64,000 nt of DNA from Patescibacteria group bacterium (lineage in GTDB: Bacteria > Patescibacteriota > Patescibacteriia > Patescibacteriales > UBA12465), in NCBI GenBank assembly GCA_041650775.1, contig JBAZKO010000001.1:1030-65029 (forward strand), in the 5' to 3' direction. Position 1 is the stretch's first letter. Each line of letters opens with the position of its first letter. Below, piece after piece: positions 6,708 through 62,418 of this stretch. The notes under the pieces were generated by a model that worked only from the letters and a program-made list of their open reading frames with translations, searched no databases and was not told the origin of the DNA. Both the position numbers and the translations under genes were made by a program.

Positions 6708-6769
6708 AGGAGCATGATAATTAATAATTAAAATAAGGCCTCAATTTAGAGACCAAACCTCTACCTAAT

Positions 6770-6798: not shown

Positions 6799-6873
6799 TA
6801 AATAACCTTTTTATTTAATTTTAACTAATTTTCCTTTAATATAACTGTAATATGACCTATGACTAATCACATA

Positions 6874-6902
6874 TTGACATAATAATTTAATAATGTTATT
6901 AT
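6874..6902 (+). promoter_or_regulatory. Candidate promoter for the small plus-strand ORF
   Basis: TTGACA (6874-6879), a 17-nt spacer, then TATTAT (6897-6902). It sits 22 nt upstream of the ATG at 6924. Confidence 0.4.
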
Positions 6903-6923
6903 ATAGAATCAAATAGTTCTTTA

Positions 6924-7339: not shown

Positions 7340-8884
7340 TTACTGCTGATAAAAGGCCTTCATCGCCGCATTGAACTCCGCCGCCTGCTGATTATATTCA
7401 TTAACTTTCGTTCGATAATTCGCCAAAACGGCATTATACTGACTGACTAAATTATTATAGGTCGGAACAAGATCGTTGTATTCGACAATCTGCCCGCTGT
7501 TATAATAAGTATCCATTTGCGTCTTCATGGCGCTTAAATTATTTTCCCGCGTCCGCGAATCGTTCTCCAATTCATCAATGTCCGTCTGCCGCGCGTTCAA
7601 TTCATCCTTAGACGTTCTCAGAGCTTCGACTTTGGCGCGCGTCGCTGTTACGCCGCGATAAACCTGACCGGACGTTTCCTGATAAATTTCCATTTTTCCT
7701 AAACCGGCGGAATCAAACAGGCCGACTAGATCGTTATCCGGCGTTTGCGCCTGTCCGGAGCTGATGCTTTCGGGAATGACGCCTAAAGGAAAATAATTGG
7801 TGGTCTCGGCGTAACAATAACCGGAACCGTTGAGCGAATATTCCGCCGGGCAAGCAATCCCGACCGCGGTATGGTTACGTTCGGGAAAATCGAGAATCGC
7901 CGCGCCGTAACCGAGTTGTCGCAAAAGCGCCACGGCTAAGAAGGTCTTATCCGAACAGACGCCCTTATCCAAATATAAAGTTTCGTACGGATAGTAAGGA
8001 TTAGTGTTGCGGTTACCGTCAATCGCCAACTTCGCGTGATCGTAGGGGATATATTGAATCAAGGCCAGCGCAAATTCCGCCAGTTGATCGCTATTCCAAT
8101 CATTCGCGCCGGCTATCGTCTTTAATTTCGCGGCCAGGTCGACCAGCGAAACATCGCCTGATTTAACCTTTAGAAATAACCCGTAAAAAGCTTCTCGCAG
8201 ATTTGGCGGCTCTTCGGCACTGTTATAACTATAAACTTTCGGCGAATTTTTATAAGCCTTATATAAACTTTCCGATAAATTTTGGGTAAACTCGTAATTA
8301 TTTCCCTGATATTTAAAAGTAAAGCGGCTGATAACGGTTGTAGTGGAGGCCGATGGAACCGGATCGGCGGACGAAAGAGACGAGGATGAACCGGTCGCCG
8401 AAGCGGACGAAGAGGTAAAAATCGGAATCCGCGCTAAATCATTATTGGTAATACCAAGCCCTTTCGACCGCATCAGATTAAAAGAGTCTGTCGGGCGGCC
8501 GAGATAATATAATTTTAAATCCAAGGGATCAACGTAATAAGCCTGTCCCTTATCTTGGACTTTTAATAAAATCCGGCCGGCTAAACGGCGCGGCGCGATC
8601 TTTTGCCAAGTAGCGAAGTCAGCGTTGGTTATTCCCAGACCCAGAGAACGCATGATCTGAAAAGCGTCATCCGGCCGACCCAGATAATAACGCCTACTAT
8701 TTACCGGATTGACATACCAGGCCTGCCCCTTATCCTGGACGGCCAAGAGAATCCGGCCGTTTAAATTAGTCGCGGCTTGCGCCTCGGAAACGTTTGAAAA
8801 CGCTGGTGCCAGACTAAAAATGACGCCAAAACCGATAAACAGGATGGCTAAAAACAAAATCGGCTTAGACAATTTAAAATTCAT
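7340..8884 (-). CDS. Secreted protein with two GRILL-type repeats, a transglutaminase-like Cys-protease core and a C-terminal coiled coil
   Basis: N-terminal signal/TM segment ILFLAILFIGFGVIFSLAPAFS. Tandem modules at aa 43-150. Ser-rich linker. TGase-like core GVCSDKTFLAVALLRQLGYGAAIL...NHTAVGI. N/Q/Y-rich heptad tail YNNLVSQYNAVLANYRTKVNEYNQQAAEFNAAMKAFYQQ. Confidence 0.7.
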   Translation of the reverse strand: MNFKLSKPILFLAILFIGFGVIFSLAPAFSNVSEAQAATNLNGRILLAVQDKGQAWYVNPVNSRRYYLGRPDDAFQIMRSLGLGITNADFATWQKIAPRRLAGRILLKVQDKGQAYYVDPLDLKLYYLGRPTDSFNLMRSKGLGITNNDLARIPIFTSSSASATGSSSSLSSADPVPSASTTTVISRFTFKYQGNNYEFTQNLSESLYKAYKNSPKVYSYNSAEEPPNLREAFYGLFLKVKSGDVSLVDLAAKLKTIAGANDWNSDQLAEFALALIQYIPYDHAKLAIDGNRNTNPYYPYETLYLDKGVCSDKTFLAVALLRQLGYGAAILDFPERNHTAVGIACPAEYSLNGSGYCYAETTNYFPLGVIPESISSGQAQTPDNDLVGLFDSAGLGKMEIYQETSGQVYRGVTATRAKVEALRTSKDELNARQTDIDELENDSRTRENNLSAMKTQMDTYYNSGQIVEYNDLVPTYNNLVSQYNAVLANYRTKVNEYNQQAAEFNAAMKAFYQQ

Positions 8885-40105: not shown

Positions 40106-41302
40106 TTACTTAACTTCTTCCACGGAAATCTGGCGTAAGTTGTCGTTGGTAATGCCTAAGCCCAGAGTCCGCATAACGCTGAAAGCGTCAGCCGGACGGC
40201 CGAGATAATGCATCTTCAAATCAACCGGATTTACGTAGTAAGCCTTGCCATGATCTTCGACTTTCAAGAGGATGCGGCCGGCTAATCTAACCGGGGCCTT
40301 GCCCTTATAAGAGTCGAAATTCTTGTTGTTGATGCCTAAACCTAATTTACGCATTATGTTGAAAGCATCAGCCGGACGGCCTAAGAAATATTTGGCCTGA
40401 TTAACCGGATTAACATACCAAGCTTCGCCTTTGCTCTGGACCTGCAATAAAATGCGGCCAGCCAAACGCTTAGCTAAAGCCTTATTAATCTTCTTAACCA
40501 GATTCTTTTCCGTCGCGATGAAACTGGCAGTATTACCGGAACCGCCGGAAATTACTCCTTCGCCGGTTACCGTCACGGTCGTCGCCTCGTCGATGACGCC
40601 GCAAACTTTCTTCGCCGCTTCCTGTTGAGCCGCGGTCAAAGTGCAGTTGTTCGGCGTGCGAGAAATGATACCGCGATACTGGTAGCCCGCAAAGCAAGCT
40701 ACGGCATAATCGCCATAGGTAACACTGGAGCAGATCGAGGTCGAACTGCCGCCACCGCCTCCACCACCGCCCGAACTAGCCGTAATCGCACCGGTCGCGG
40801 TGTAATCTATCGGCTTGGTATAATTAGCCGCATCCGCGCCGCCGAGGGTATAAACAACCGTAATGGTTTTGCTCGCTCCCACGGTCGCCGAGTTATAAGT
40901 CGCCGCCGCAGTAACCGTTACGGTCTCGCCGCTAGCTACTCCAACCAAAGTGCCGGCGGTTACGGCCGCAGTCGTATTACCGTCATATACTTTTGATGTC
41001 GTTAACGTCGGAGTCGTAATCGTCAATTGAGTCAACGCGCGCTGACCATAACCATAATCATACTCATAATCGGTGTTTGTAGCGCTACCGCCGATACGAT
41101 AGCCATTGGAGTTATCATCATAATCTTCGCCATAGCCGTAGCCATAGCCATAACCCCAACCGACAGGATCACCTGTTTCACGGGTGAATTGCGCGTACAA
41201 ATTCGGACCGAAAACCAGAGCGAAAACGCCGACGACCAAAAAGCCGAAAATCGCCTTCGCTAGCTTACTTTCCGAAAAAATAAAACTTTTTATTTTTTTC
41301 AT
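40106..41302 (-). CDS. Secreted adhesin-like protein: Tyr/Gly-rich segment, YDG/MBG-type Ig-like domain, poly-Gly linker, 4-Cys domain and two C-terminal GRILL-type repeats
   Basis: Signal/TM segment FGFLVVGVFALVF. GYGYGYGYGEDYDD. KVYDGNTTAAV...GGADAANYT (YDG/MBG-like). SSGGGGGGGSS. Tandem modules at aa 282-389. Confidence 0.7.
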   Translation of the reverse strand: MKKIKSFIFSESKLAKAIFGFLVVGVFALVFGPNLYAQFTRETGDPVGWGYGYGYGYGEDYDDNSNGYRIGGSATNTDYEYDYGYGQRALTQLTITTPTLTTSKVYDGNTTAAVTAGTLVGVASGETVTVTAAATYNSATVGASKTITVVYTLGGADAANYTKPIDYTATGAITASSGGGGGGGGSSTSICSSVTYGDYAVACFAGYQYRGIISRTPNNCTLTAAQQEAAKKVCGVIDEATTVTVTGEGVISGGSGNTASFIATEKNLVKKINKALAKRLAGRILLQVQSKGEAWYVNPVNQAKYFLGRPADAFNIMRKLGLGINNKNFDSYKGKAPVRLAGRILLKVEDHGKAYYVNPVDLKMHYLGRPADAFSVMRTLGLGITNDNLRQISVEEVK

Positions 41303-41482: not shown

Positions 41483-42148
41483 TCATTCAATATTAGCGGC
41501 CCTTTCCCGTTTATTATCACGGTATAGTTCCCTGATTTGCGTCAAGGCGGTAATGACTAAAAAGTAGTAAGCGTAAATGGCAAAAATTTCAGCTAAAACA
41601 TCTTTTTTAAAAATCAAAAAGAAGGGACAAGAAACTAAAAAAACAAGAGCCGCACCGGCGGCATAGCGGCTATCAAGAATGAAGAGAAAAGAAATTAGGC
41701 CGTAAAGCAAAATTAAAAATTCCAGCGGATTAATATATTTAAACAGCGAGAAAACCAAAACTAAAACTACAACTGCGACTTTCAACCAGTCGCATTTTTT
41801 GACTAACGCTAGTCTCCGCCAAGCCCAGGAAAAAAAATTTTGTGTTTTATTCCGAGTCAGGATTAAAAAAAATTTTAAAGCTCCTTTCCAGGAATGAGCG
41901 GAAAAATAATTAAAAATCCGGAGGTGGGAGACAAGAATAAATAAAAGTGTAAATAAAACTACGGCCGAATGAAAAGCCGGCCAGAAAAAAAACGAGCGCC
42001 AAGTTTTCGACCATAAGGAAATAAACAAAGCCAAAAAATAAAATCCCAAAAAATAAGGATAGAATTTCCTGACTTTGTCGGCCAATTCCGCGCCCAAAAT
42101 CTTCCGGTCAATCTTCTCTTGATTTTTTTCTTCAATTTTAGTGGACAT
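41483..42148 (-). CDS. Hypothetical polytopic membrane protein
   Basis: About 6 hydrophobic helices. Overlaps the flippase gene by 11 nt. No motif recognised. Confidence 0.5.
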   Translation of the reverse strand: MSTKIEEKNQEKIDRKILGAELADKVRKFYPYFLGFYFLALFISLWSKTWRSFFFWPAFHSAVVLFTLLFILVSHLRIFNYFSAHSWKGALKFFLILTRNKTQNFFSWAWRRLALVKKCDWLKVAVVVLVLVFSLFKYINPLEFLILLYGLISFLFILDSRYAAGAALVFLVSCPFFLIFKKDVLAEIFAIYAYYFLVITALTQIRELYRDNKRERAANIE

Positions 42149-43418
42149 ATTTTTTTCGATCGGTTAAATAATCAGACCAGCATAAACCCAGTAAAAATAA
42201 ACTAAGGCCGCCGAAAATCAGAACCAAAGACCAAACTATCTGCCAAAGATCGGTGTGGAAAAGGCTGATTAGGATAATTTCAGCCGCCGCGCCTAAAGTT
42301 AAAATGACCAGACCGGAACGGCGGGAGAGAGCCAAAAAATATTGAGCCAGAACCGTCAGCAAAGTCAGAGCCAACATCGCCCAAGCGAAAACCGGCAGGT
42401 ACGGAGCGAGTGCCAGATATTTAACCCCGACCACAAGCTTAATAACGAACTCCGGAAAAATAGAAATAAACAGCGCGGCCGGAACCGCTAAAAGCGCCAT
42501 CAGCCCCAAAGATTTAGCTAGGACGAAATACTTGCGGGAACTGAAGTCGTCTTTCAGGCCGGCAATCACCGGGAACATTACCAAAGGCACGGAACTGCCG
42601 ATGAAAAAAACTATTCGGCCGATAGTAAGAAGCGCACCGTAAAGACCGGCCTCTTCCGGTGAAAAAAAATATTTGACGAACAGCATATCGAAATTATAAA
42701 AAAACTGCGACAGCACGGTGAACCATAAGACCAAAGAAGCGTAGCGCCAAATCTTATTGAAAGAACCGGAAAAATCTTTGGCTACAGCCGGCAGGCCGAC
42801 TCGCTTAATCTGCCAAAAACTGAAAATAAAAGACGGTAGGCTACTTAACCCTAGGGCGAAAGAAGCGCCGATAAATCCGAACGGCCAAAATATCACTAAA
42901 GCGACTATTAACAACAAGCGACTTAGAGCATCCAAAAAACTACTGAAAGACAGAGCGGAAAAATATTGGCGGCCGGTTAAAAGCGCACGATTGACTATCA
43001 AGGGGAAAGTATAAACCAGGCTCAAAGCGGCGATGACGATAGTCACCGGCCGGCTGATTTTAAACAGCTCATTAAAAAATCCGGAGAACACCGCGACCAG
43101 CGCGAATAAAATAATCCCCAGATAAAAAAGGCGGCTGGTGGCGCGGCGGCGCAGGGATTTTATCTCTTCCGGCGCGGCGACCGACAAAACCGAAAATTCT
43201 TTAGTGAACGCTGTATTTATTACCACACCGATAATTCCCAGAACCGTCAGGAAAGACAGAAGCGCCTGATAGTCGCCGTATTCCGGAATCGTCAGGCGGC
43301 GCGTCAAAAGCGGATGAACCAGATAATTCAAAGCGGACGACAAAAAAGTGACCACCGTCAAAACAAAAGTCCCGCGCACGAATTTATCGGTCAGTAGTGT
43401 TTTAAGATTTAATTTCAT
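42138..43418 (-). CDS. Polysaccharide flippase (Wzx/MOP superfamily)
   Basis: 426 aa with about 12 TM helices and a composition typical of oligosaccharide flippases. Lies in a glycan-locus context. Confidence 0.7.
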   Translation of the reverse strand: MKLNLKTLLTDKFVRGTFVLTVVTFLSSALNYLVHPLLTRRLTIPEYGDYQALLSFLTVLGIIGVVINTAFTKEFSVLSVAAPEEIKSLRRRATSRLFYLGIILFALVAVFSGFFNELFKISRPVTIVIAALSLVYTFPLIVNRALLTGRQYFSALSFSSFLDALSRLLLIVALVIFWPFGFIGASFALGLSSLPSFIFSFWQIKRVGLPAVAKDFSGSFNKIWRYASLVLWFTVLSQFFYNFDMLFVKYFFSPEEAGLYGALLTIGRIVFFIGSSVPLVMFPVIAGLKDDFSSRKYFVLAKSLGLMALLAVPAALFISIFPEFVIKLVVGVKYLALAPYLPVFAWAMLALTLLTVLAQYFLALSRRSGLVILTLGAAAEIILISLFHTDLWQIVWSLVLIFGGLSLFLLGLCWSDYLTDRKKYVH

Positions 43419-45114
43419 AAACCAATAGAGTAGCCGTTTCTTTTATTAAACGCAAATATGACAAGTCATTTAACCAGCCGTATTTTTTCCAGTCGACTTC
43501 TTTCGCTAAAATAATATAACGGATAGGCGAACCAGCCGGAACCGGCGAGCCGTCTTTCCCCTGCACCCTCAGCCAAGCGGCCACGGCCGCGCTGTCGTAA
43601 TTCTGGCTATTATCATAAATTCCACCGTATTCCATATTCGTCCCACTGATAACTGGGCAGGTAAAAAACACCGGCGCCGGATTAGCGATCACTTTTCCTG
43701 CCCAGTTAAAACTCAGATACATGTGCCAGGGCAAGAATAAAATTTTATCGGAACAGCTATAAGACTGGGTCGCCCGATTAACTAAAAAACTGTTAACTTC
43801 ATACCAATCGGCCGGATACGGCGTCGATTTAACCTGATTGTTAAAACCCCAAAGTAAGGACGGCGTCTGCGTAACAATTATAACAGCGAGAACAACGGCA
43901 CTTAAGCGGCGATGGCTCTTAACCAATTTAAAATCTTTTAAACGATTGACGCCAAGCGTCAAATAAAACAAATAAATCGGAATTATGACCGCCACCAATT
44001 TCTGTGGCTCGCGCAAACCCTTATACAGAGGCAGATGATCATAAAGAAACATCGTCAGTCCGCCAGTGAGCGGCGACTTGATGCCGACCGCTAAGGAGAC
44101 GGCCAGACTGAAAATAAAAATCAGACCGGCGCTAAAAATCTTTTCGTCGCGACTGCGTTTCCGAAAACTTAAGTAGACGCCATAAAAAATCAGCGGCGTT
44201 AATAAAATGAAGCTTCTCTGCCAGCCGGGAGCGTCCGTTAAGTCAAAATATCGAAACTGTTCCTTGCCCCAGAAACCGGACATCAGCAAAACATTGGTAA
44301 AAGTTTCTGTTCCATCTTTACCGGCGGTCTGGAAAGCGGATAAATCCTGAGTGGTTATTCCCTGCTGGACGAAAGAGGTTAAAGGAGAGGCTTTAAAAAT
44401 CAAAGCTACTAGCCAATTGGCGTTAATAAGCAAAACGATGACTAAAGAAAATAATAAAGCCAGCCAAAACTTCTTAATCGACTTTAATATTATCATTTCC
44501 CGACGTTTCAGAAACAATAAGATAAAAAACAATAAATAAAAAAGAGCTAGGAAAAAAATAAAATGAAGAGCGGATAACAGGACTAGAGCGCTAAAAACAG
44601 CGGCCAACCGTAAATTTTTAAAATCCAAAGTCTGCCAAGCTTTAAAAAGATAAGCGCCGGCAAAAAGCAAACAGCCGTAAGCGATTAAGACACTAAATTG
44701 GCCATAGAGCGCTCGGTCATAAACGAAGGGATTAAATAGGGCGAATAGGCTAAGAACAAAAACCAGACCGCGAGAAGAAACCGGCCCGCCCGTCGCGCTC
44801 TCCAACCAATCGCGCGCCAAAACTGTTTTAACGAAAAATCGCCCGCCCAATAAAATAAGAAACAAAACGCCGGTAATAAAAATCTTCTCCAAGAAAGCAA
44901 TCGAAAAAATAAAAGACAATCCCTTAATTATCAAATTAAATAAGAACCAGACATTAGTCCAATCAAGATTAATATTCATCCCCCACGCCATATCGGTCAA
45001 AAAAAGATAACCCGAATGCAGTAGCCAAGGAGCTACAATCGCTAAAATAACTAAAACATAGCCACAGAAGGAGATCAATAACCGATTAATTTTTAGCTTT
45101 TTAAATAAATTCAT
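43402..45114 (-). CDS. Large polytopic membrane protein with a C-terminal extracytoplasmic domain (possible GT-C-fold glycosyltransferase or polymerase)
   Basis: About 11-13 TM helices over aa 1-400, then a soluble domain of about 160 aa. The call rests on architecture only. Confidence 0.45.
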   Translation of the reverse strand: MNLFKKLKINRLLISFCGYVLVILAIVAPWLLHSGYLFLTDMAWGMNINLDWTNVWFLFNLIIKGLSFIFSIAFLEKIFITGVLFLILLGGRFFVKTVLARDWLESATGGPVSSRGLVFVLSLFALFNPFVYDRALYGQFSVLIAYGCLLFAGAYLFKAWQTLDFKNLRLAAVFSALVLLSALHFIFFLALFYLLFFILLFLKRREMIILKSIKKFWLALLFSLVIVLLINANWLVALIFKASPLTSFVQQGITTQDLSAFQTAGKDGTETFTNVLLMSGFWGKEQFRYFDLTDAPGWQRSFILLTPLIFYGVYLSFRKRSRDEKIFSAGLIFIFSLAVSLAVGIKSPLTGGLTMFLYDHLPLYKGLREPQKLVAVIIPIYLFYLTLGVNRLKDFKLVKSHRRLSAVVLAVIIVTQTPSLLWGFNNQVKSTPYPADWYEVNSFLVNRATQSYSCSDKILFLPWHMYLSFNWAGKVIANPAPVFFTCPVISGTNMEYGGIYDNSQNYDSAAVAAWLRVQGKDGSPVPAGSPIRYIILAKEVDWKKYGWLNDLSYLRLIKETATLLVYEIKS

Positions 45115-46211
45115 TTCAAAGTATTTTTGTCTAATATTCTATTATTAAATTTCGTCCAAGTAACTTCGTTATATATAGCTAAACCAATGGCGTCTAAACC
45201 GGCGACACTTAAATGTAAATTGTCGCCATAATCATAGGCGGATAGAAGAGTATCAGCGATAGCAGGATCCATCAAGACAGGGTAAGTATCAACTACGTAA
45301 TCTATCCCCGTAGCAGTATTTTTAATCCAAGTATTTATAGTTTGCAAATTAGCTAATCTGCCAGAAGTGTAACCCGAGCTCCCCTTGAATGGGCTAAGGG
45401 TTAAGGCAACTACCTTCAACCCGGTATTATGCGCTGCGGTATACATTGCCTGGAGATTTGATTCAATGGCGGTATTGTCAACATCATATATCACATCAAC
45501 AATTCCGCCCCAAATAATCACGTATTCAGCATCAAGATTACTTAATATGTCATCGTTAAATCTAGCTAGCATTTGCGCAGTATAATTTCCTCCGATTCCA
45601 AAATTATTGCCATTCCATTTCTTCCCTAAAAGTGATAATAAACTATTTAAATAAGCATGATTGGTGGTATTGAAAGCAGTCAAACTATCTCCGATAGAAT
45701 ATATTTGATGAACTTGATTTGCAAATGTAGACGAATTAACTTTGATATAACTCAAATCTTTATTACTGATGCCAAGCCCTAATTTTTTCATTGTATTATA
45801 AGCCTCGGGGCCATCCTTTAAATAGTGCAAACTTCCATCAAATCCCACATAATAGGCCTCGCCCCTGGACTCCACTTGGAGAAAAATCCTCCCTTTTTGT
45901 TTTATTGCCAAATTTTTATTATTGTTAATTTTTTCTAAATCGGCATTTGTTATGCCCACGCCGAAACTCCGCATTATATTATAAGCATCACCCCCATTCC
46001 TCATATAATATCTCTCCGTCGTCGTTGGGTGGACATACCAGGCTTCACCATTATTTTCCACCTGAAGCAATATTCTACCTCTTAAGTGGTTACTCAGCGA
46101 TTCGGCTTTTAGCGGTATGGTTGGAGTGATTAATATGATAATAAATACCAACCCTTTAAAAATGCCTGATAATATATTTAAATATTTTTTACCTCGCATA
46201 AGATTTAACAA
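45111..46211 (-). CDS. Secreted SGNH/GDSL hydrolase with two N-terminal GRILL-type repeats
   Basis: Signal/TM segment, then tandem modules at aa 45-153. SGNH blocks: IYSIGDSLTAF (block I), GIGGNY (II), IIWGGIVD (III) and DNLHLS (V, DxxH). Confidence 0.75.
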   Translation of the reverse strand: MLNLMRGKKYLNILSGIFKGLVFIIILITPTIPLKAESLSNHLRGRILLQVENNGEAWYVHPTTTERYYMRNGGDAYNIMRSFGVGITNADLEKINNNKNLAIKQKGRIFLQVESRGEAYYVGFDGSLHYLKDGPEAYNTMKKLGLGISNKDLSYIKVNSSTFANQVHQIYSIGDSLTAFNTTNHAYLNSLLSLLGKKWNGNNFGIGGNYTAQMLARFNDDILSNLDAEYVIIWGGIVDVIYDVDNTAIESNLQAMYTAAHNTGLKVVALTLSPFKGSSGYTSGRLANLQTINTWIKNTATGIDYVVDTYPVLMDPAIADTLLSAYDYGDNLHLSVAGLDAIGLAIYNEVTWTKFNNRILDKNTLK

Positions 46212-46219
46212 AGTAAATA

Positions 46220-49006
46220 TTAATATTTTTTATTTTTCCTCCTCCAACTATAAATTAAATAACCCAGACAATTAAATAAAGTTAGGCTGGTAATAAATAA
46301 TCCGATATAAAATAATCTCTGCGGCCAAAATTCAATAATCAATTCCATATCATAACTACCATCAGCATTTTTGTGGCAATTATTCGTTGGGGTGCAAATC
46401 TTATCAGTATCAATCAGCCAGCTATTAGCGTAACTATTAGCCAACAAATGATCAGTGTTATCAGCTACCGGCTGTTTGAACCAAGTCTCATAGAAATGAC
46501 CGGTGGATAAGTTATTATTTTGGATAGTGCCTTGAATATTTTTAGAGATAAAATCAATTTTATATTTTTCAAGATAATCCAAATTCTCTTTGTTGTCCTC
46601 AAATTTTTTATGTTTTATAACCCGCTCCACCCCATTTCCCAAATCAGTGATTAACCCCTGAGTTATAAAATAGTCAACTTCATCGCGACTGGCCTGATCA
46701 TCGCTATTCCCGTCCAAAACTTTATAATCAACTAACTTTATTTCATCAACTTTATTTCCAACATTTCTATTACCTAAATATACTTTCCAGCCGTCATGAA
46801 AAGATTCACCAAAAATCAAGGGAAAACTTTTCCGAGCATGATGAACGACAACGCGATATTTAATCGGATTAATCTTTCTGAATTCAAGTACTGGTGACTC
46901 AGACTCCTGTTCGCGCGATATCTTATCATAATAATTTATCTTTTTATTCAAATCAAATTTTAATTCGTTTAATCTAATATTATTATCAACTAATTCTTTT
47001 TTTTGTTTCTTAGCCAACAAATTATCTTTTTCCAAATCAGAGGAAGTTATTCGTGTTTCCAGATCACCAATCTCAATTTTAATCTTCCGACAAACATCAT
47101 TCTCCTCCCCTATATTAATATTATTGCTAGATATTAAAGCACCGAGTTTATCAAGACCCATTTGATTATTCTGATTTTGTTCTTGGAAATAAACAGCGGA
47201 ACGGATTTGATAACAAGGATTAAAAACAATATCCGAAAGTCTATTAATTGAACCAGAGGATATTATTATAGATTTAGTGGTGTAAAAAGTAGGCAAAAAA
47301 TAGTCGTTCTTGAATAATTTAATAGAACCAGATTCCCACTTACTCATTTTCAGTGAAAAAAGTTCATTTAATTCTGTTATATTTTCTTTTTCTTTAAAAC
47401 CAAAGGAGGGCACGATATCGGCGTTAATTAAAATCTTTCTAATGTTAAAAATGCTTAGACTATTTTCTACATTCTCATTGGAAAAATTATTATAAATTAT
47501 GTCAAATTTGCTACCCCAATAAGTAGCAACAAAGGATTTATTTAGAGCCAGCATTATTGGATCCATACCTCGATAGTACTTATTACTACCATGATTCAAC
47601 ATAGTAATCTGATAGTTAAGTGAACCGGGTAAAGATAATAATCGATAATCAAGCTTATCATTATTTATAACTTGTCTGACTTGCTGATACTCAGTTTTAT
47701 CAATAAATTTTCTAGTAACGAAATCGACTTTATTTAAACTAAAATCAGGAATAAAGTTTAATGTCAAAAATGGTATACTACAAACAACTAAATACCCACC
47801 CAGAAGATAAAAATTAAACCGCCCTTTCTTTTGGATCATGGCGAATACCAATGTCAATGTAAATATAAAGGCTAGCAAAACACCAAATTTTTCCCAAGGA
47901 CTTTTAAAAATATAGAAAAGCGGCGCATAGTTCATTAAAAACATGTAGATGTTTGCGAACGGATTGTTAGCGCCTTTTGTTAAAAATAGAACAATTAAAA
48001 ACGTAACTAAAACGACAATTTTAGCTTTTTGCCATTTTTGATTTTTTATAAATAAAGATCCGGCAATAATCAACAAAGGAATATATAATATTATTTTAAC
48101 AAAATTATTATCGTAAAATTGTACGATAGAAGAGTTATAATAATAACTGGGAAAAATAAATGATCCTAAAAAACGAAGTGATAACAATTGGCTCATCATT
48201 GATCCGAAACCGCTACTACTATTAATCCAATTGATAGCGATATCTCTTGTATAAAAAATATGAGCATCAAAAAATGCAAATTTAAAAAAAGGCAATAACC
48301 ACCAAAAATTAAATAATACAAAACTTAGTTCTAAAATAACAAAATTCATCAAAATTCTTTTCGCTTTTAATTTATTCTCTTGCAGATAAGAAATTATGAT
48401 GAGCGACATTAACAAAAAAATATGGAAAATCGCAAAATAAGGGATGCCTGCAAAGGAAAAAGAAACTAAGGCAGTAAAAATTCCGAAATAAATAAATAAC
48501 TTCTTGTAATTTAGAAAATATTTATAGAGAATACTAAACGTAATCGGCAAGACAAATAACAGCGCCAAGTTCCAGAATGTCTGTCCATAAAGATGAATAG
48601 CCGAGAAAGGGTTAAAAATGTAAAAAAGACTAATTAAAATCGATGTCTTTAACTCAATTTTTAAACATTTATCCAATAAAAAAAACATCGCTATAAACGG
48701 TAGAAAATAAATCAAAAAGACGCTAATTGTATTAACTGTTTTAACAGACATTCCGATGTTATATAAAAAATCGAAAAAATCAAATATCCCAACAGGGAAA
48801 TTCACTAATGAATTGGGCGCGCCAAGTCCGCCAGTTAAAGGTAGCCAAGTGTGCCCATATAGATTTTTTACCAAACTTACATCTAAAAAGTAATTCCCTT
48901 CTCCTCCTAATATTAAAAAATTATTTGAAAAAATTGTTATTATAGTTAAAAAGAATATAATAACAGCCCCAATAAAAATATTTTTCTTGTTTATTAATCT
49001 ATTCAT
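46220..49006 (-). CDS. Giant polytopic membrane protein (928 aa) with an ectodomain of about 480 aa and a C-terminal TM anchor (possible GT-C-fold enzyme)
   Basis: At least 12 TM helices in aa 1-420, a coiled-coil stretch (LEKDNLLAKKQKKELVDNNIRLNELKFDL), and a terminal TM segment LFYIGLFITSLTLFNCLGYLIYSW. Very AT-rich. Confidence 0.45.
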   Translation of the reverse strand: MNRLINKKNIFIGAVIIFFLTIITIFSNNFLILGGEGNYFLDVSLVKNLYGHTWLPLTGGLGAPNSLVNFPVGIFDFFDFLYNIGMSVKTVNTISVFLIYFLPFIAMFFLLDKCLKIELKTSILISLFYIFNPFSAIHLYGQTFWNLALLFVLPITFSILYKYFLNYKKLFIYFGIFTALVSFSFAGIPYFAIFHIFLLMSLIIISYLQENKLKAKRILMNFVILELSFVLFNFWWLLPFFKFAFFDAHIFYTRDIAINWINSSSGFGSMMSQLLSLRFLGSFIFPSYYYNSSIVQFYDNNFVKIILYIPLLIIAGSLFIKNQKWQKAKIVVLVTFLIVLFLTKGANNPFANIYMFLMNYAPLFYIFKSPWEKFGVLLAFIFTLTLVFAMIQKKGRFNFYLLGGYLVVCSIPFLTLNFIPDFSLNKVDFVTRKFIDKTEYQQVRQVINNDKLDYRLLSLPGSLNYQITMLNHGSNKYYRGMDPIMLALNKSFVATYWGSKFDIIYNNFSNENVENSLSIFNIRKILINADIVPSFGFKEKENITELNELFSLKMSKWESGSIKLFKNDYFLPTFYTTKSIIISSGSINRLSDIVFNPCYQIRSAVYFQEQNQNNQMGLDKLGALISSNNINIGEENDVCRKIKIEIGDLETRITSSDLEKDNLLAKKQKKELVDNNIRLNELKFDLNKKINYYDKISREQESESPVLEFRKINPIKYRVVVHHARKSFPLIFGESFHDGWKVYLGNRNVGNKVDEIKLVDYKVLDGNSDDQASRDEVDYFITQGLITDLGNGVERVIKHKKFEDNKENLDYLEKYKIDFISKNIQGTIQNNNLSTGHFYETWFKQPVADNTDHLLANSYANSWLIDTDKICTPTNNCHKNADGSYDMELIIEFWPQRLFYIGLFITSLTLFNCLGYLIYSWRRKNKKY

Positions 49007-49015
49007 TTGTAAATT

Positions 49016-49489
49016 TTAATTTATCATCTTAATAATTTTAGCCGGAACTCCGGCCACAACTGAATAATCCGGCACATCTTTTGTAACCACGCTTCCTGCG
49101 GCCACAACCGAATGTTTTCCAATTGAAACACCTGGCAATATTATCACGTTTGCACAAATCCATGATCCTTTGCCAATGAAAACAGGCTTAGATTCGGATC
49201 CTTGAGACACGATATCTAGGTTCCTATTTTCATATATATGATTTTCGGTATATATTTTAACACCATGAGCCAATAAGACATCACTCTCTATCACCAATCC
49301 GCCATTTCCATTAATCACCGTACCAAATTGAATAGTAATATTATCGCCGACGGAAATACCCCGCAGTCCGCTTATGAAACAACTACTGGAAACCGCGAAC
49401 GACTTGCCGGTTCTTTTTAGAAAAAACGAGTAAAAAAAACCTCGGGTATAATAACTCGTCTTAATAAGAAAGTAAATAATTTTTTGCAT
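49016..49489 (-). CDS. Hexapeptide-repeat (LbH) acetyltransferase
   Basis: Repeated [LIV]-G-x4 turns (VGDNITIQ, IGKGSWICANVIILPGVSIGKHSVVAAGSVV). 157 aa. Confidence 0.8.
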   Translation of the reverse strand: MQKIIYFLIKTSYYTRGFFYSFFLKRTGKSFAVSSSCFISGLRGISVGDNITIQFGTVINGNGGLVIESDVLLAHGVKIYTENHIYENRNLDIVSQGSESKPVFIGKGSWICANVIILPGVSIGKHSVVAAGSVVTKDVPDYSVVAGVPAKIIKMIN

Positions 49490-49505
49490 AAGACTCTTTA
49501 GATTA

Positions 49506-50393
49506 TTAATATTTCTTACAAATAAATGTTAAATCCTCATTGCTAAAAAATTTAAAAAGTGGATATAAAGGATAAATCAAAAATTTTATTGGTGATTTTC
49601 TAATTGACCAAAATAAATCAAGTGGATAATCATAAAATTCATTTTTTATACTAACAACTTTTAATTTATTTCTTGCGCAAGCTTTATAGATAGTACTCCT
49701 ATTGGGGATATTTAAATGCCTAGGGGAATCAAGATGAAACCAGTTTTCTTTTCCAAATCTAAATCCCAAACTTTTGTTATTAGGAACTTGAAAAACTAAA
49801 ATACCGTTGTCTTTTATTATTTCCCGTGCTTTTTTAAATAAACTCATGGGCTTTTCTAAGTGTTCCATGACATGCCATAATGTTATAACATCAAATTTTT
49901 TTTCACCGAAATTTATTAGCTCTACAGGCTTATTATAAACATCAATTTTTTTTCTTCTACATATTTCTACTCCTTCAGGATTTATTTCTATACCGTTTTT
50001 TTCAAAAATATCCGAATCTAAACTCAACAAAAACCCTCCCCGGCCACAACCAATATCCAAAATAGAAAGTTTTTCTCTGCCCTTAAAATACCTACGAATA
50101 TATTTTTCTTTAATTTTAGAAAATAAAAACTTATATAAAGACGCCCAGCAACGATTGGTAGACTTGTTTTCTCCATTCTCTAAATAATAACTAACCTCGT
50201 AATACTTTTCATAATAGTTATCACCTACTTCAATGTTGGGAATAAACAAGCATCCACAGTCCAAACATTTATATACGGGAAATCTTTCCTTTTTTTCTAC
50301 TATATTTTTCCCATGGGTATTGAAAGATGAAAAGGAATACTTCGTATCTTCGCTACTGCAGAATCTACATTTATTTGGCATTTTTACATTCAT
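49506..50393 (-). CDS. Class I SAM-dependent methyltransferase with an N-terminal CxxC...CxxC zinc ribbon
   Basis: CRFC...CLDCGC, then ILDIGCGRGGF (motif I). Alternative start at 50381. Confidence 0.8.
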   Translation of the reverse strand: MNVKMPNKCRFCSSEDTKYSFSSFNTHGKNIVEKKERFPVYKCLDCGCLFIPNIEVGDNYYEKYYEVSYYLENGENKSTNRCWASLYKFLFSKIKEKYIRRYFKGREKLSILDIGCGRGGFLLSLDSDIFEKNGIEINPEGVEICRRKKIDVYNKPVELINFGEKKFDVITLWHVMEHLEKPMSLFKKAREIIKDNGILVFQVPNNKSLGFRFGKENWFHLDSPRHLNIPNRSTIYKACARNKLKVVSIKNEFYDYPLDLFWSIRKSPIKFLIYPLYPLFKFFSNEDLTFICKKY

Positions 50394-51204
50394 AGATAGT
50401 TATGTAAGAATTTTCAATTTCTTCTTTTTCAGACGTCAATTTATAATTTACCGCTAAAGCATTATTTTTGGATTCTCTACAAAAAAACAACTTCTTTAAA
50501 AAAACCGGTAAATGCCGTGCGATAAATCTAATAATTTCAAATTGGGAAATAAGCGATAATATTTTATCCTTCATCTTTCTACTTTTTTCCTCATACGACC
50601 ACCCGTTTTCTTTCATTTTTCTTAAAGACTCGTTATCTATTTGCCCATAGCACACAACACTTAAAAAATATTTCTCTAAAATTTCCGCTAATTCCATGGG
50701 GCGGTATTCATAAATATGAAAAGGCATAATAGGATGTTTTAATCCGCTGGAAGTAATATTTTTATTTACTGTCGCTAAAAAAAAGGTTCCTTCATTTTTT
50801 AATAAATTCTTAATATCTGTTAAATAATACTCACAATTTTCCCGATCTATATGCTCTATCACTTGAAAAGAAGTAATGACGTCATATTTTGTGAGAATGT
50901 TTTTATTAAAAGTGAACTCTAAATTCTTATTCTTATTATAAAAAAAAATATTTTTCTTGATAGTGTTCTTATCTATATCAAACCCGACAACAGCTCTTTT
51001 TGTAAATCTTGAAAGATACTCGGTGCCATACCCGCCGCCGCAACCATAGTCAAGAACGAAGTCCGTATCTTTAATCTTACTTTCAGCAAACTTATACGCA
51101 AATTGCAAAACAGCCTCTATTTCCTCAAACCTTGTATACAGAATCGGTCTTTCGCCAGTATTGATCAATTCTAAATAAATTTTACTAAGAATATTTCTCA
51201 TCAT
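50371..51204 (-). CDS. Class I SAM-dependent methyltransferase
   Basis: VLDYGCGGGYG (motif I) and FQVIEHI (post-II). Confidence 0.8.
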   Translation of the reverse strand: MMRNILSKIYLELINTGERPILYTRFEEIEAVLQFAYKFAESKIKDTDFVLDYGCGGGYGTEYLSRFTKRAVVGFDIDKNTIKKNIFFYNKNKNLEFTFNKNILTKYDVITSFQVIEHIDRENCEYYLTDIKNLLKNEGTFFLATVNKNITSSGLKHPIMPFHIYEYRPMELAEILEKYFLSVVCYGQIDNESLRKMKENGWSYEEKSRKMKDKILSLISQFEIIRFIARHLPVFLKKLFFCRESKNNALAVNYKLTSEKEEIENSYITIYECKNAK

Positions 51205-51213
51205 ATCGCTGAT

Positions 51214-52023
51214 TTAAAAAATATTAGATTTAGAGACATTCCTTGCCACCTTACGCATTATAATAAAATGATGGTGCGAAAATAGCGAGAGCGGAGTTCG
51301 GGATATGGTAGCATCAAGAAGAGCGAGCGGGCGTGTTATAATATTAGCAATTTTTTGCAATACGCCGGGGAAATGTTCAGGAAAAAAATCCGTCATCGCA
51401 CAAAACACCGGCTCAAAAGACGATGAAAACTTTTTGAGCAATTCTTTCCGCGAGAACAAAATTTCATGACTCCGCACAAGAAACTCAGTAAGTGCATATC
51501 TATTTGGTGTTCTGGATATAACGATTAGACCGGATGGTTTAAGCACTCGGGTCATCTCAGTAATAACCTTATCTAATATCTGTGAGGGGACATGCTCAAT
51601 GACAGCATGGACAAAAATATGATCAAATTGTGCATCCGTGAAAGGGATATGGGTACCATCAAAATAGTTAAAATTTAAATTAATTGAACAGTCAGTAATA
51701 TTTTTCCAAAGAGTCATCTGTGATGATTTACCAGCGGTCTTAAAGACATCTTGTATTTCCTCGCCTACATCATAAATATCAATGGCTTCCACTAGATATC
51801 CCATCTTAGATAAAACAAAACTTGTGAATCCTGAGCCGCAGCCGAAATCTAAAATTCGTATATTCTTATCTTCACCTGCGAGTGAAGCAAATTTTGAAAA
51901 AATAGGGTAAAAACCATTAACATATGGATAGGAATGAAAAAGAAAATTCTCTTTAACAAACCCACTCTGATTAAGAATTTCGACAAATTGAGCGAATAGT
52001 TTACTAAAATATTTTTTATTCAT
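51214..52023 (-). CDS. Class I SAM-dependent methyltransferase
   Basis: ILDFGCGSGFT (motif I) and HAVIEHV. Confidence 0.8.
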   Translation of the reverse strand: MNKKYFSKLFAQFVEILNQSGFVKENFLFHSYPYVNGFYPIFSKFASLAGEDKNIRILDFGCGSGFTSFVLSKMGYLVEAIDIYDVGEEIQDVFKTAGKSSQMTLWKNITDCSINLNFNYFDGTHIPFTDAQFDHIFVHAVIEHVPSQILDKVITEMTRVLKPSGLIVISRTPNRYALTEFLVRSHEILFSRKELLKKFSSSFEPVFCAMTDFFPEHFPGVLQKIANIITRPLALLDATISRTPLSLFSHHHFIIMRKVARNVSKSNIF

Positions 52024-53240
52024 AATAAAGTTTTTTCAAAAACGGCAGAATATATCTTCTTTGCACGAATATTCCAGTCCCATACTTCAACTACTAAATC
52101 GCGCGCCTCTTTTGAAATTTTATCATATAAATCATTATCTTTCAGTAGTTTAAAAATATTTTCTGCAAATTGTTTTTTATTACCCTGGGCAGTCTTAATA
52201 AATCCCTTAGGATAATACGTCCTCAGGGCTTCCAGATCAAAACTCACACCCGGCAAACCCCAAGCCATACCTTCAGCTGAAGCCATGCCTCCACTATCAT
52301 AGATTGCCGGATGAAGTATGAGTTTTGACTCTTTAAAAACATTATATTTTTCCGGTCCATCCATAAAACCCAATAAATTAATATTATCTTCTAGTTTTAA
52401 ATTTTTTATTTTTTCCCTAACTTTATCTTCCAAAGGACCAATCCCTATCATAGCTAATTTAGCCCCCTTTTCCAGTTCGCAAACTCTTTTCCAAATATCA
52501 ATAAGTTCTAAAACTCCTTTTTGATAATGGAATCTGCCAACAAAACAAGCATCATACATTCTTTTGTTAACTGGAATAATATTATTTTCTTTAAAATATT
52601 TTTCTGATTCTGTGATATCCACCCCTCCCTGGACAACAATAATTTTTGACCTATTTCTTTTTTTAGTTATAAATTTTTTTACGTCCGGATCTGAGGTGAC
52701 AAAAACATAGTCAGCATATTTTTTTACAAAAAAATATGATAATCTTTGCGTCAACCAATAGAAAAATCCTCTTAACCAATTTTTTCCTTTATAAGGAGAG
52801 TTCCCATCTAGAGGATTCGGCGCGAATAAATAATAACCCGCAATCCATTTAATTTTCGGATTCTTAAGCTTAGTATATAGCGCAGGAACAAAATCTGAAT
52901 AGAAATCAGAGGTGGAATAGATGTAATCAATATTTTTAATTTTCTCCCAATTATTTTTTAAGGCTACTATGCCCTTATAAGCTCTCCGAAAAGTACATTT
53001 TATAAAATCTACTAATGAGTTATTAAAAGATACTACTACATCTGTCTGGATAAACTCTATTTCATCGTTAAATATTTCATGAATATAGTTGGTTATTGTT
53101 TCTGGTCCGACTAAAATTATCTCTGATTTATTTTTCCAATTTTTTAGAAGCTCGGTCCAAATACGAGTTCCGCCGGAATCAATGAAAACTCTACTATTAG
53201 ATTTACCCCCAAAACCATTTACAATAAAGGCTATTTTCAT
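52020..53240 (-). CDS. Glycosyltransferase family 4 (GT-B)
   Basis: C-terminal GGMASAEGMAWGLPGVS (E-x7-E-like). 406 aa. Confidence 0.8.
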   Translation of the reverse strand: MKIAFIVNGFGGKSNSRVFIDSGGTRIWTELLKNWKNKSEIILVGPETITNYIHEIFNDEIEFIQTDVVVSFNNSLVDFIKCTFRRAYKGIVALKNNWEKIKNIDYIYSTSDFYSDFVPALYTKLKNPKIKWIAGYYLFAPNPLDGNSPYKGKNWLRGFFYWLTQRLSYFFVKKYADYVFVTSDPDVKKFITKKRNRSKIIVVQGGVDITESEKYFKENNIIPVNKRMYDACFVGRFHYQKGVLELIDIWKRVCELEKGAKLAMIGIGPLEDKVREKIKNLKLEDNINLLGFMDGPEKYNVFKESKLILHPAIYDSGGMASAEGMAWGLPGVSFDLEALRTYYPKGFIKTAQGNKKQFAENIFKLLKDNDLYDKISKEARDLVVEVWDWNIRAKKIYSAVFEKTLL

Positions 53241-53305
53241 AACTATTATATACTTTTTAAAATTTAATACAACAGTATATTAATTATATCTAGTTTTATT
53301 TCTAA

Positions 53306-54601
53306 TTATTTTAAAAATTCTCCAAAAGATTTAATCACATAATTAAGCATTTCTTTTGTCAGCCCCGGATAAACACCAATCCAGAAAGTATTATTCATGA
53401 CTTCATCGGTATTTTTCAAATCCCCGGAAATTCTGTAATTAATATTATAATTTTTAAAATAAGGCTGTTTTGTTACGTTACCAGCAAACAACAAACGCGT
53501 ACCGATTTTTTTATCATTTAAATATTTTAATAATCCTTCTCTAGAAAATCCTGCCTCTGGTTTGATTGTTAATAAAAATCCAAACCAACTCGGATCCGCT
53601 TCGCTATTCCAACTGGGCAAAATAAAATACTTTTCTAATTTTTTAAAAGCGGCATAAAGATAAGCGAAATTATCTTTTCTTTTTTGAATAAATTTAGGAA
53701 GTTTATCAAGCTGAACCAACCCCAAAGCGGCCTGAATGTCAGTAATCTTCAGGTTATAACCGATTTCACTATAAATGTATTTATGGTCATAGCCTTGGGG
53801 TAAATCACCAAGTTTCCAGTTAAAACGATTCTTGCAAAAATTATCAACCCCGGTCGAACAGACGCAATCACGACCCCAATCTCGCAATGATCTCACTATC
53901 TTACTTAAGATGGGGTCATTAGTCAAAATCGCCCCTCCTTCCGCCATAGTAATATGATGCGCGGGATAAAAACTGCAGGTTGATATATGACCAAAAGTTC
54001 CGGTAAATTGTCCATTATATTTTGAACCTAAGGCATCACAGTTATCTTCAATGAACCAGAGATTATATTCGTCACAAATTTTCCTTAATTCAGCTACCTC
54101 AAAAGGGTTACCGAGAGTGTGGGCAATAAAAACTGCTTTAGTCTTAGGAGTGATGGCTTTTTTAATAGATTCCAGAGATGCATTATAAGTTCCCAGCATA
54201 ACATCCACAAAAACTGGGATAAACCCGTTCTGAATAATCGGATTAACGGTAGTCGGAAAACCAGCGGCAACAGTAATCACTTCGTCCCCCTTTTTAAGAC
54301 GTTTCTCGTCCGGCAATCGAAAAGAAGTAAGAGCGCTAAGTGCCAATAAATTAGCGGAAGAACCGGAATTAACGGCGACACAAAACTTTAAACCCAAAAA
54401 ATCTGCCAGACTTCTTTCAAATTCAGCGGCGTATTTCCCTTCTGTCCACCAGCCCTCCATAACTGCGTTAACCATATTAATCAATTCTTTTTCATCAAAA
54501 ACTTTTCCCGAAACAGGGACTAGTGATTCTCCGGGGATAAAAAGCTTATGGGAAAACCGGGACTTAAATATTTTTTTGATTTCTGAATGTAAAGCGTCCA
54601 T
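53306..54601 (-). CDS. ddhC: CDP-6-deoxy-L-threo-D-glycero-4-hexulose-3-dehydrase (E1; RfbH/DdhC/AscC family)
   Basis: Long collinear blocks match Salmonella RfbH as I recall it: GDEVITVAAGFPTTVNPIIQNGFIPVFVDV, SFYPAHHITM (His replaces the PLP Lys), GYNLKITD, DPSWFGF, IGTRLLFAGN and FWIGVYPGLT. The Fe-S motif C-X57-C-X1-C-X7-C is present by direct count. Confidence 0.9.
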   Translation of the reverse strand: MDALHSEIKKIFKSRFSHKLFIPGESLVPVSGKVFDEKELINMVNAVMEGWWTEGKYAAEFERSLADFLGLKFCVAVNSGSSANLLALSALTSFRLPDEKRLKKGDEVITVAAGFPTTVNPIIQNGFIPVFVDVMLGTYNASLESIKKAITPKTKAVFIAHTLGNPFEVAELRKICDEYNLWFIEDNCDALGSKYNGQFTGTFGHISTCSFYPAHHITMAEGGAILTNDPILSKIVRSLRDWGRDCVCSTGVDNFCKNRFNWKLGDLPQGYDHKYIYSEIGYNLKITDIQAALGLVQLDKLPKFIQKRKDNFAYLYAAFKKLEKYFILPSWNSEADPSWFGFLLTIKPEAGFSREGLLKYLNDKKIGTRLLFAGNVTKQPYFKNYNINYRISGDLKNTDEVMNNTFWIGVYPGLTKEMLNYVIKSFGEFLK

Positions 54602-54610
54602 AATAATATT

Positions 54611-55489
54611 CTACAAATGTTCTAAAAATAATTTTTTATCAAAATTCGGTAAAATTGTCTTATAGTATTCCACTAATTTAGCAATGGCCTCTTTTAAATC
54701 AATAAACTCCAATTCAGGAAATTCTTTTTTTAACTTGCTTATATCACAGGTGTACTCATTATTAAGCCCATCTTTAAATATTTTAATCGGCAAATCCTTA
54801 TTAGTAACTTCCAAAATCATCCTGGCAATAGTCAAAAGATCAACCCGCTGGCCGCTGCCGACATTATAAAAAACATCCTTCGGCTTGTTCTCTATAATTC
54901 TATCTATAACCTTGGCGGCGTCATTAATATAAAGATAATCAAAATAAACGTTCTGATTAATCGTTAATGGGAGGTTCAGCAGGGCCTTACAAATTGAATT
55001 AGAAATAAATCTGGTTTTAAAATCTTCATATTTTCCGAATACCCCGAAAAAACGAAGATGAGTAATAAAATCTGTGCCGACCGCCAATTTAGCCATCGTG
55101 AATTTCGCCAAGCCATATTCATCTTCAGGAATATTACGACCGAAGTCTTTTTCATTAACCAGGCGCAAACTTTGAGATTTATCATATTCCGCTCCAGAGC
55201 CGAAAACAATCATCCTATTAAAATATTCCTTAGCGGCCAACAGATTATAAAAAATAATCAAGTTACTCTTTAAAATGTCCAGCTGAATATTACTTTTCCG
55301 GTTGCCGCCGGTTGCCGCCGTATGCAAAATCAATTCCGGGCGATTAATTTTTATATATTCAAAAACAGACCGAGAATCCAAAAGATTCAGTTCCGACCGC
55401 CGCGGTGCCAATATTTCATATTTATCCTTCAAAATTTCCAGGATATTCTTACCGATAAAACCATTGCCGCCAGTTAATAAAATTTTCAT
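54611..55489 (-). CDS. NAD(P)-dependent extended SDR (sugar-nucleotide ketoreductase/epimerase; YerF- or RfbJ/RfbS-like role)
   Basis: MKILLTGGNGFIGKNI and YGLAKF (YxxxK). 292 aa. Lies between the ThDP enzyme and E1. Confidence 0.65.
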   Translation of the reverse strand: MKILLTGGNGFIGKNILEILKDKYEILAPRRSELNLLDSRSVFEYIKINRPELILHTAATGGNRKSNIQLDILKSNLIIFYNLLAAKEYFNRMIVFGSGAEYDKSQSLRLVNEKDFGRNIPEDEYGLAKFTMAKLAVGTDFITHLRFFGVFGKYEDFKTRFISNSICKALLNLPLTINQNVYFDYLYINDAAKVIDRIIENKPKDVFYNVGSGQRVDLLTIARMILEVTNKDLPIKIFKDGLNNEYTCDISKLKKEFPELEFIDLKEAIAKLVEYYKTILPNFDKKLFLEHL

Positions 55490-55496
55490 ACGAATT

Positions 55497-57242: not shown

Positions 57243-57278
57243 AAAACGCTATTTTAAAAGCTCGACTTGATAAATAAA

Positions 57279-58241: not shown

Positions 58242-58382
58242 ACGTTTTATTATTTAGGCGAATTTCTATATGATTAAGCTAATTTCTACTCGGAGTTATT
58301 GCTATTTTTATGTATTCTTTAATAAATTGCTTATTTAAATGATAAATCATTTTCGTTTTAAAATCAATAAAAAAGACCCTAA

Positions 58383-58874: not shown

Positions 58875-59043
58875 TTTTCTTTTCCTTTCCTTTTTAAAGA
58901 ATTTATTTTTTCATTTCTAACTTAGCATAATACCATATCTAATAAATTATGTCAACAAAAACCATTTATACTGCTGCTAGTCTAGTCCTTAATAATAAGT
59001 ATTTTTACCCAATATTAAACATAAAAAATCTATCTTTAAAAAC

Positions 59044-60830: not shown

Positions 60831-60867
60831 TATAAATTTATATTACAATTTCATCTTATCAAAACAT

Positions 60868-62391: not shown

Positions 62392-62418
62392 AATTTCTAA
62401 AATGTGATCTCACTTAGA

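Follow-up and report, generated by a model that had tools for sequence, protein, structure and literature searches.

A portable tandem domain pair of exported Patescibacteria proteins, outside the named families, is a candidate envelope anchor

Introduction

The ultra-small Patescibacteria account for a large share of bacterial diversity and almost none of them have been cultured; how they build their surfaces and attach to hosts is largely unknown, and unnamed domains are common in their genomes. We analyzed a stretch of 64,000 nucleotides from a Patescibacteria group bacterium (assembly GCA_041650775.1, contig JBAZKO010000001.1, positions 1,030 to 65,029 of the forward strand), hereafter called the window, in which three genes, p1, p2 and p3, each encode a tandem pair of one short conserved unit joined to unrelated partner domains. 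This unit had been described in an earlier note as an unnamed portable module, with a suggested role in surface targeting or ligand binding. The module proved to be a discrete pair of domains that is exported, stands at a protein terminus, is portable and is extremely well conserved; among named sources, it occurs in Patescibacteria only. It constitutes a new sequence family, and the anchoring role proposed here is itself a known functional kind. By analogy with known anchoring domains, the pair may be a lineage-specific portable device that holds passengers non-covalently on the cell's own envelope, the reading that we regard as the most likely and to which we give a probability of roughly one half.

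Three exported proteins and six copies in the window

A hidden Markov model (HMM) was built from the six copies and searched, with all filters off, against every six-frame open reading frame (ORF) of the window. Exactly six copies of the module were recovered, with independent E-values of 1e-28 to 1e-34, and the next-best match had an E-value of 0.05. The copies lie where the earlier note had placed them, as three tandem pairs in three genes, and all peptides quoted there occur verbatim in the ORFs. Residues 43-150 of p1 (ORF 7340-8884, minus strand, 514 amino acids) are encoded by 8435-8758, residues 282-389 of p2 (ORF 40106-41302, minus strand, 398 amino acids) by 40136-40459, and residues 45-153 of p3 (ORF 45111-46211, minus strand, 366 amino acids) by 45753-46079. 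The parts of the three proteins are as follows, with residue numbers in brackets.

7340..8884, minus strand: p1, 514 amino acids, with signal, tandem pair, Ser/Thr-rich linker, transglutaminase-like core and C-terminal coiled coil
8774..8884, minus strand: p1 putative signal-peptide-like N-terminus (1-37), with basic n-region, hydrophobic core and SEA/AQA cleavage-type motif
8591..8764, minus strand: p1 unit a, AWYV type (41-98; HMM E-value 9e-34)
8423..8584, minus strand: p1 unit b, AYYV type (101-154; HMM E-value 4e-32)
8336..8422, minus strand: p1 Ser/Thr/Ala-rich low-complexity spacer from pair to passenger (155-183)
7853..8083, minus strand: p1 transglutaminase-like core, weakly assigned (268-344; DUF553 and Transglut_core, Pfam)
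40106..41302, minus strand: p2, 398 amino acids, with signal- or transmembrane (TM)-like N-terminus, Tyr/Gly-rich stretch, YDG domain, Gly run and C-terminal tandem pair
40817-41029, minus strand: p2 YDG domain (92-162; Pfam E-value 7e-16)
40286..40465, minus strand: p2 unit a (280-339; HMM E-value 1.3e-33)
40109..40285, minus strand: p2 unit b, reaching the C-terminus of the protein (340-398; HMM E-value 8e-33)
45111..46211, minus strand: p3, 366 amino acids, with signal, tandem pair and SGNH/GDSL esterase, within a low-GC glycan-biosynthesis island
45903..46085, minus strand: p3 unit a, with the variant YYMRNGGDAY replacing YYLGRPxDAF (43-103; HMM E-value 4e-33)
45720..45899, minus strand: p3 unit b, which has diverged furthest of the six copies and has a one-residue deletion (105-164; HMM E-value 2e-28)
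45198-45695, minus strand: p3 Lipase_GDSL_2 domain (173-338; Pfam E-value 6.6e-19)

The pair follows directly on the signal-like N-terminus in p1 and p3 and is C-terminal in p2, as had been described. All three N-termini, as read from the sequence, are basic and then hydrophobic, with an Ala-x-Ala-type motif at the end; the pair starts approximately 3-10 residues past this motif in p1 and p3, and reaches the C-terminus in p2. The three partner domains named earlier (transglutaminase-like, YDG and SGNH esterase) were all matched by Pfam hmmscan, the first of them weakly, since the p1 core reached only an E-value of 1.6e-4 with DUF553 (21.6 bits, just over the cutoff of 20.5) and of 7.9e-4 with Transglut_core. 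The layout of p2 is of the adhesin type, and the pair occupies in it the place that the wall anchor has in Gram-positive adhesins. The same protein carries a Tyr/Gly-rich acidic stretch after the signal, at residues 45-90 (GYGYGYGYGEDYDD...YEYDYGYG), and a run of eight Gly in the region of residues 177-190, ahead of a Cys-containing region; its N-terminus is common to the orthologues P0114 and P0203.

Between any two of the six copies, 23-35 of 48 core residues are shared, and nucleotide identity is 0.53-0.69. Fewer than two-thirds of the identical residues are written with the same codon, which indicates that the copies are old duplicates rather than recent DNA repeats, their likeness being kept by selection at the protein level. 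The first copies of p1 and p2 (AWYV) are closer to each other than to their own second copies, and the second copies (AYYV) are likewise closer to each other than to their own first copies. Because first resembles first and second resembles second, what was inherited and passed between genes is the pair and not the single unit. Two details of the earlier description needed adjustment. The module had been given as about 48 residues long, and the conserved core is indeed approximately 50 residues, but the repeat period is really 60-62 residues; and it had been called always a tandem pair, which is so within the window, whereas elsewhere the unit also occurs singly, in threes or in pairs with a longer linker.

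Distribution, conservation and architecture

The six-copy profile was searched against 1.84 billion cluster representatives, and 3,585 proteins were matched at E<=1e-3 and 2,457 at E<=1e-30, with two matched stretches in 143 of the 150 top representatives. A pattern scan of one GTDB genome per species yielded at least 582 confirmed stretches in species-representative genomes. Several module loci occur per metagenome-assembled genome (MAG), three genes being present in this 64-kb window. The informative source names are all of Patescibacteria: Falkowbacteria, Parcubacteria, Uhrbacteria, Magasanikbacteria and 'Patescibacteria group'. Occurrence outside the Patescibacteria was considered for 28 loci titled 'uncultured Gammaproteobacteria' and was rejected; their flanking genes show synteny with Falkowbacteria/Patescibacteria loci, at protein identities of up to 90-97%, which means that the record titles are wrong. 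The wrongly titled MAG loci are L004, L006, L008, L009, L012 and L014 plus 22 further ones (GTDB species representatives).

Conservation of the unit was evaluated over 408 units. Each of the positions G3, I5, G13, A15, Y17, P20 and G29-R30-P31, and likewise D33-A34-F35, M38-R39, G42 and G44, is kept in more than 90% of them. The p3 sub-type, in which YYM-x-[DN]G-x-x-AY replaces YYLGRPxDAF, is common in the database. A 93-residue remnant of a p3-type pair, which starts inside unit a, was also seen (P0287; L082 8001-8282 and L083 4756-5037); its setting, the one inspected for p3-type genes beyond the window, is a defence island that also encodes methyltransferases, AAA_15/RloB, an OLD-family nuclease and an AlwI-type restriction enzyme, and it is uninformative as to the context of p3.

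Architectures were counted in 148 representatives (P0100-P0247), the signal-like segment being scored by a hydrophobicity heuristic and not by SignalP. Frequent occurrence in proteins without signal peptides had been named as a finding that would speak against a surface module; a hydrophobic N-terminal signal-like segment was present in 138 of the 146 representatives that begin with Met. The module stands directly after this segment in 118 of the 148 proteins, at the C-terminus in 27 and internally in 2, so that it is terminal in 145. No C-terminal LPXTG-like signal and no lipobox was seen in any of the 148, and an additional TM-like segment was seen in one. Many database proteins, approximately 150 residues long, consist of little beyond the signal-like segment and the pair.

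The two units of a pair are not always the same at core position 16. In tight pairs, with a linker of at most 8 residues as in the window, unit a has W and unit b has Y in 85 of 91 cases. Pairs with linkers of 9-30 residues have W in both units, as do pairs with linkers of approximately 63 residues, and 38 of 40 of these long linkers contain two TSP3-type DxDxDG calcium-binding motifs.

The portability that had been proposed was borne out, as approximately 80 Pfam partner families were found among the 148 representatives, with the module at the N- or C-terminus. The commonest partners are TSP3_bac (27), CAP (11), Trypsin_2 (7), PA14 (5) and fn3 (4). Others include transglutaminase-like domains, subtilase, peptidase C25, Kazal, PEBP and YHYH, as well as beta-propellers, CARDB, DUF11, SNase together with a lamin-tail domain (LTD), and NAGPA; many partner regions have no Pfam match.

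Relation to named families and predicted structure

The module had been left without a family name, and we found no credible match for it in Pfam, NCBIfam, PHROGs, PDB sequences or folds; in particular, none of these searches gave a confident match to a characterized binding domain. Pfam hmmscan was run with the three full proteins at E<=1 and with the three isolated pairs at E<=10, and HMMER filters are able to hide very weak Pfam matches in such searches. Neither LysM (PF01476) nor SLH (PF00395) was matched by the full proteins or by the isolated pairs at these thresholds, and the isolated pairs gave no match at E<=10 to SH3b, CW_binding_1 (PF01473), CWB2 (PF04122), PG_binding_1 or SPOR. PHROG matches to the module, with E-values of 0.001-0.006, are each only approximately 20 residues long and are not credible. 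The best E-value in a PDB profile search with 53 diverse units was 0.19 (TarP). Foldseek gave nothing significant against PDB (best E-value 3.4 for the pair and 1.2 for the single unit) or, for the pair, against BFVD (best E-value 0.54). No published description of the module was found in the literature searched, motif strings included.

Two candidates were considered and rejected. The WW domain (PF00397) was matched in Pfam with an E-value of 0.11 over 12 residues, and in Foldseek the YAP WW2 domain appeared with an E-value of 1.2 and TMq 0.30. For a uL30-like domain, the 53-sequence unit profile did not reach uL30 (PF00327) at E<=10, Pfam gave no Ribosomal_L30 at E<=10, and Foldseek gave no L30. 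Two module-only secreted proteins, P0008 and P0040, bear the JGI name 'ribosomal protein L30/L7E'; what they share with that family is a short GRPxD...LGL stretch, and this annotation is probably false.

AlphaFold2 (AF2) was applied to the p1 pair with a 51-sequence alignment, giving a predicted local distance difference test score (pLDDT) of 83.6 and a predicted template modeling score (pTM) of 0.74. Each unit of p1 is predicted as strand-strand-strand-helix-strand, followed by a short helix; in unit a the strands are at 5-8, 14-18 and 25-27, the helix at 31-41 and the fourth strand at 43-45. When a single unit was predicted (78 sequences; pLDDT 79, pTM 0.55), the three strands and the helix were kept and the fourth strand was lost. 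This strand is present in the pair model only, and the pair has a high pTM; on these two grounds the units, as modeled, seem to pack together into one body. The modeled fold is possibly new.

Among known systems, SLH domains, which anchor S-layer proteins and exoenzymes to wall polymers, are closest to the module in layout. They too consist of units of approximately 55 residues whose tandem copies form one pseudo-symmetric body; they are found at the C-terminus, or directly behind the signal peptide, of many unrelated exoproteins, a genome has several paralogues, and the passengers are less conserved than the domains themselves. They differ in that there is no sequence match, in that SLH units come as triplets and the module as pairs, and in that the named sources of the module are Patescibacteria only. 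The SLH fold is helical, whereas the module unit is predicted to have three strands and a helix.

LysM, SH3b, CWB2, CW_binding_1, PG_binding_1 and SPOR domains are, like the module, small repeated extracytoplasmic terminal modules with spacers to catalytic domains. LysM has a b-a-a-b topology (b, strand; a, helix) of approximately 44 residues, and the AF2 topology of the module is b-b-b-a-b(-a). Unlike wall-binding modules of the LysM, SH3b and CWB2 type, the module has partners that, in the tables compiled here, are not dominated by peptidoglycan hydrolases. The top Foldseek matches to the unit, WW and lambda integrase arm-binding domains (non-significant, E-values 1.2-2.4, TM 0.30-0.42), have in common with it a three-stranded antiparallel meander with conserved aromatics and Pro, followed in lambda integrase by a helix, but they are intracellular peptide- or DNA-binding domains. 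Cellulosome dockerins are also duplicated short segments that end many secreted enzymes, with calcium-binding motifs nearby, as in the TSP3 linkers of the module; however, they do not match the module in sequence, a cohesin-like partner was not found, and the calcium-type motifs of the module are in the linker and not in the unit. The module would work like SLH, LysM, CWB2 and choline-binding repeats, yet is a member of none of them.

Genomic setting in the window

The neighbors of p1 are housekeeping genes, among them those for a histidine phosphatase (8912-9583) and ribosomal protein S2 (5942-6634), and they are closest to those of Falkowbacteria-type MAGs. Syntenic orthologues of p1 adjoin the histidine phosphatase gene in 35 of 80 related loci, in Falkowbacteria-type genomes, and are 45-60% identical in the loci compared. 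This synteny and conservation suggest a core envelope function for p1.

The setting of p3 is different in kind:

42138..63429, minus strand: surface-glycan biosynthesis cluster of 21 kb (Pfam), enclosing p3, with p2 just downstream of its end

The sugar genes of this cluster, as assigned by Pfam, encode a Wzx-type flippase, a GT1 and two GT2 glycosyltransferases, a DegT aminotransferase and epimerases/dehydratases; further genes encode three methyltransferases, a hexapeptide acyltransferase, a TPP enzyme, a NUDIX protein, an NTP-transferase and a radical-SAM/B12 protein. The core of the cluster (44-60 kb) has a GC content of 0.31-0.36 and the rest of the window one of approximately 0.45, and given this drop the island may have been acquired horizontally. 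Two multi-pass membrane proteins that flank p3 (43402-45114, 570 amino acids, and 46220-49006, 928 amino acids, both on the minus strand) have no Pfam match at E<=1e-3 and are possibly the island's polymerases or glycosyltransferases of GT-C type. The SGNH esterase of p3 plausibly acts on wall glycans. This setting of p3 lends circumstantial backing to an envelope function of the module, and a tie between the glycan cluster and the module's ligand is speculative.

Envelope anchoring and its rivals

Anchoring domains have been reported to be swappable, to be present on many proteins per genome and to be more conserved than their passengers (bioRxiv 10.1101/2025.04.02.646754). We infer envelope anchoring because the module behaves in the same way, being swappable, present in multiple copies per genome and highly conserved; its passengers, moreover, are of types typical for wall-associated proteins, and its carriers are exported, bear it near one end and show no other recognizable anchor. 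According to this scheme, the carrier protein would be exported by an N-terminal Sec-type signal, and the pair would come to lie at one end of the chain, either the N-terminus left after maturation or the very C-terminus, with a flexible spacer to a variable passenger such as a peptidase, esterase, nuclease, CAP or adhesin-type domain. The pair would then bind a conserved envelope ligand, either peptidoglycan or a secondary wall glycan, and the passenger would be retained on the surface. SLH, LysM, CWB2 and choline-binding repeats act in this manner in other monoderm bacteria. Of the portable surface-targeting module proposed earlier, portability and export are observed, and surface targeting is a reading of the architecture.

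Several points weigh against anchoring. The units are only slightly basic, with a median pI of 8.3 and a mean net charge of +0.6, so they carry no strong electrostatic signature for an anionic polymer. No classical peptidoglycan hydrolase is present among the partner families, as judged for 110 proteins from the 25 most frequent of 60 families. The absence of other anchors would suit freely secreted proteins equally well, and the association of the module with a glycan island was seen in one window and at one locus. That the pair binds a ligand, and which ligand, we infer from architecture.

Viral sequences provided one lead that bears on wall binding. By tblastn, no module match was found in 50,697 phage genomes, and in IMG/VR one contig with the module was found (L081, IMGVR_UViG_3300038315_001257; relevant regions 5903-6940, plus strand, and 3650-5180, minus strand). 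It carries a secreted protease gene whose product consists of a signal, one unit, a Pro-rich spacer and a trypsin-like peptidase, and adjoining it a 320-residue papain-like peptidase is encoded between two small TM proteins; the latter peptidase and the TM proteins may form a lysis cassette. The C-terminal 65 residues of the papain-like peptidase match the whole unit weakly (hhalign P 0.0028, probability 11%; hmmsearch E-values 0.003-0.009). The sole homologue found shares the catalytic part and differs at the C-terminus, which shows a domain boundary there. Should this peptidase prove to be a lysin whose wall-binding domain is a diverged unit, wall binding by the module would be favored.

The first alternative, which we regard as unlikely though the strongest of the rivals, is that the module targets a host: it would bind the envelope of the host bacterium that carries the episymbiont, through peptidoglycan or a surface glycan of that host, and either deliver peptidases, nucleases or esterases to it or mediate attachment. 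All cultivated Patescibacteria are reported to be episymbionts (PMC12206443), and this habit would suit host targeting, as would the degradative and adhesive passengers (trypsin-like, subtilase, SNase, PA14, CARDB and YDG) and the fact that the module proteins are without another anchor. However, the very high conservation across lineages calls for an invariant ligand, and yet hosts are diverse; peptidoglycan as the ligand would suit host targeting and anchoring on the own envelope alike. In addition, p1 stands in synteny beside housekeeping genes, as mentioned above, which is more like a function in the cell's own envelope.

Docking of the dockerin/cohesin kind, in which the pair would plug exoproteins onto a conserved protein scaffold such as an S-layer, a pilus or a membrane receptor, seems to us quite improbable. 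Short duplicated units in a terminal place with many passenger types are found in dockerins too, the calcium-binding motifs of the long inter-unit linkers are in keeping with it, and the extreme conservation would fit co-evolution with a single partner protein. Nevertheless, no recurrent candidate gene for a receptor was found beside the module genes in the loci inspected, and the many pair-only proteins of approximately 150 residues are common for glycan-binding modules and unusual for dockerins.

There is little to recommend a role without any ligand, in which the module would serve as a cap for export, folding or stability, or as a prodomain that keeps the passenger inactive until it is processed. 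In 80% of representatives the module directly adjoins the signal peptide, and several passengers are peptidases, as such a role would predict, but the module is also C-terminal (27/148) and occurs in stand-alone proteins, its passengers include the non-enzyme domains fn3, PA14, CARDB and CAP, and long flexible spacers separate it from its passengers. Finally, the suggestion of a diverged RNA-binding domain like that of ribosomal protein uL30, prompted by the JGI naming and by the only phmmer match of the p1 pair against PDB (E-value 0.89, with a common GRPxD...R.LGL...TN stretch), is effectively refuted, given that the unit profile, Pfam and Foldseek are all without L30 and that the module proteins are exported.

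Significance

The module is unusual among unnamed domains in its abundance, its conservation and a size suited to direct experiments, and it clearly deserves consideration as a new curated domain family. It also touches on the way in which uncultured episymbionts organize their surface. Two kinds of misleading annotation can be corrected with it, namely the 'Ribosomal protein L30/L7E' names and the 'Gammaproteobacteria' titles of MAGs. Since thousands of exported proteins carry it, the module can serve as a sequence tag when the surface proteome of Patescibacteria is to be predicted. The pair, of approximately 115 residues, is a defined small protein for binding, structural and localization work, and might also be used as an anchor in surface display or in fluorescent labeling of Patescibacteria in environmental samples.

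A broader possibility, which we offer tentatively and consider less than likely, is that the pair and its ligand together form a general surface-display system specific to Patescibacteria, built on a fold without a solved relative, or else a device that fixes hydrolases and adhesins to hosts. In the surface-display version, clusters of the type seen at 42-63 kb of the window would make the ligand, a wall glycan specific to the lineage, and the system would be a counterpart of SLH with pyruvylated secondary cell wall polymer (SCWP), or of CWB2 with polysaccharide II (PSII), in Firmicutes.

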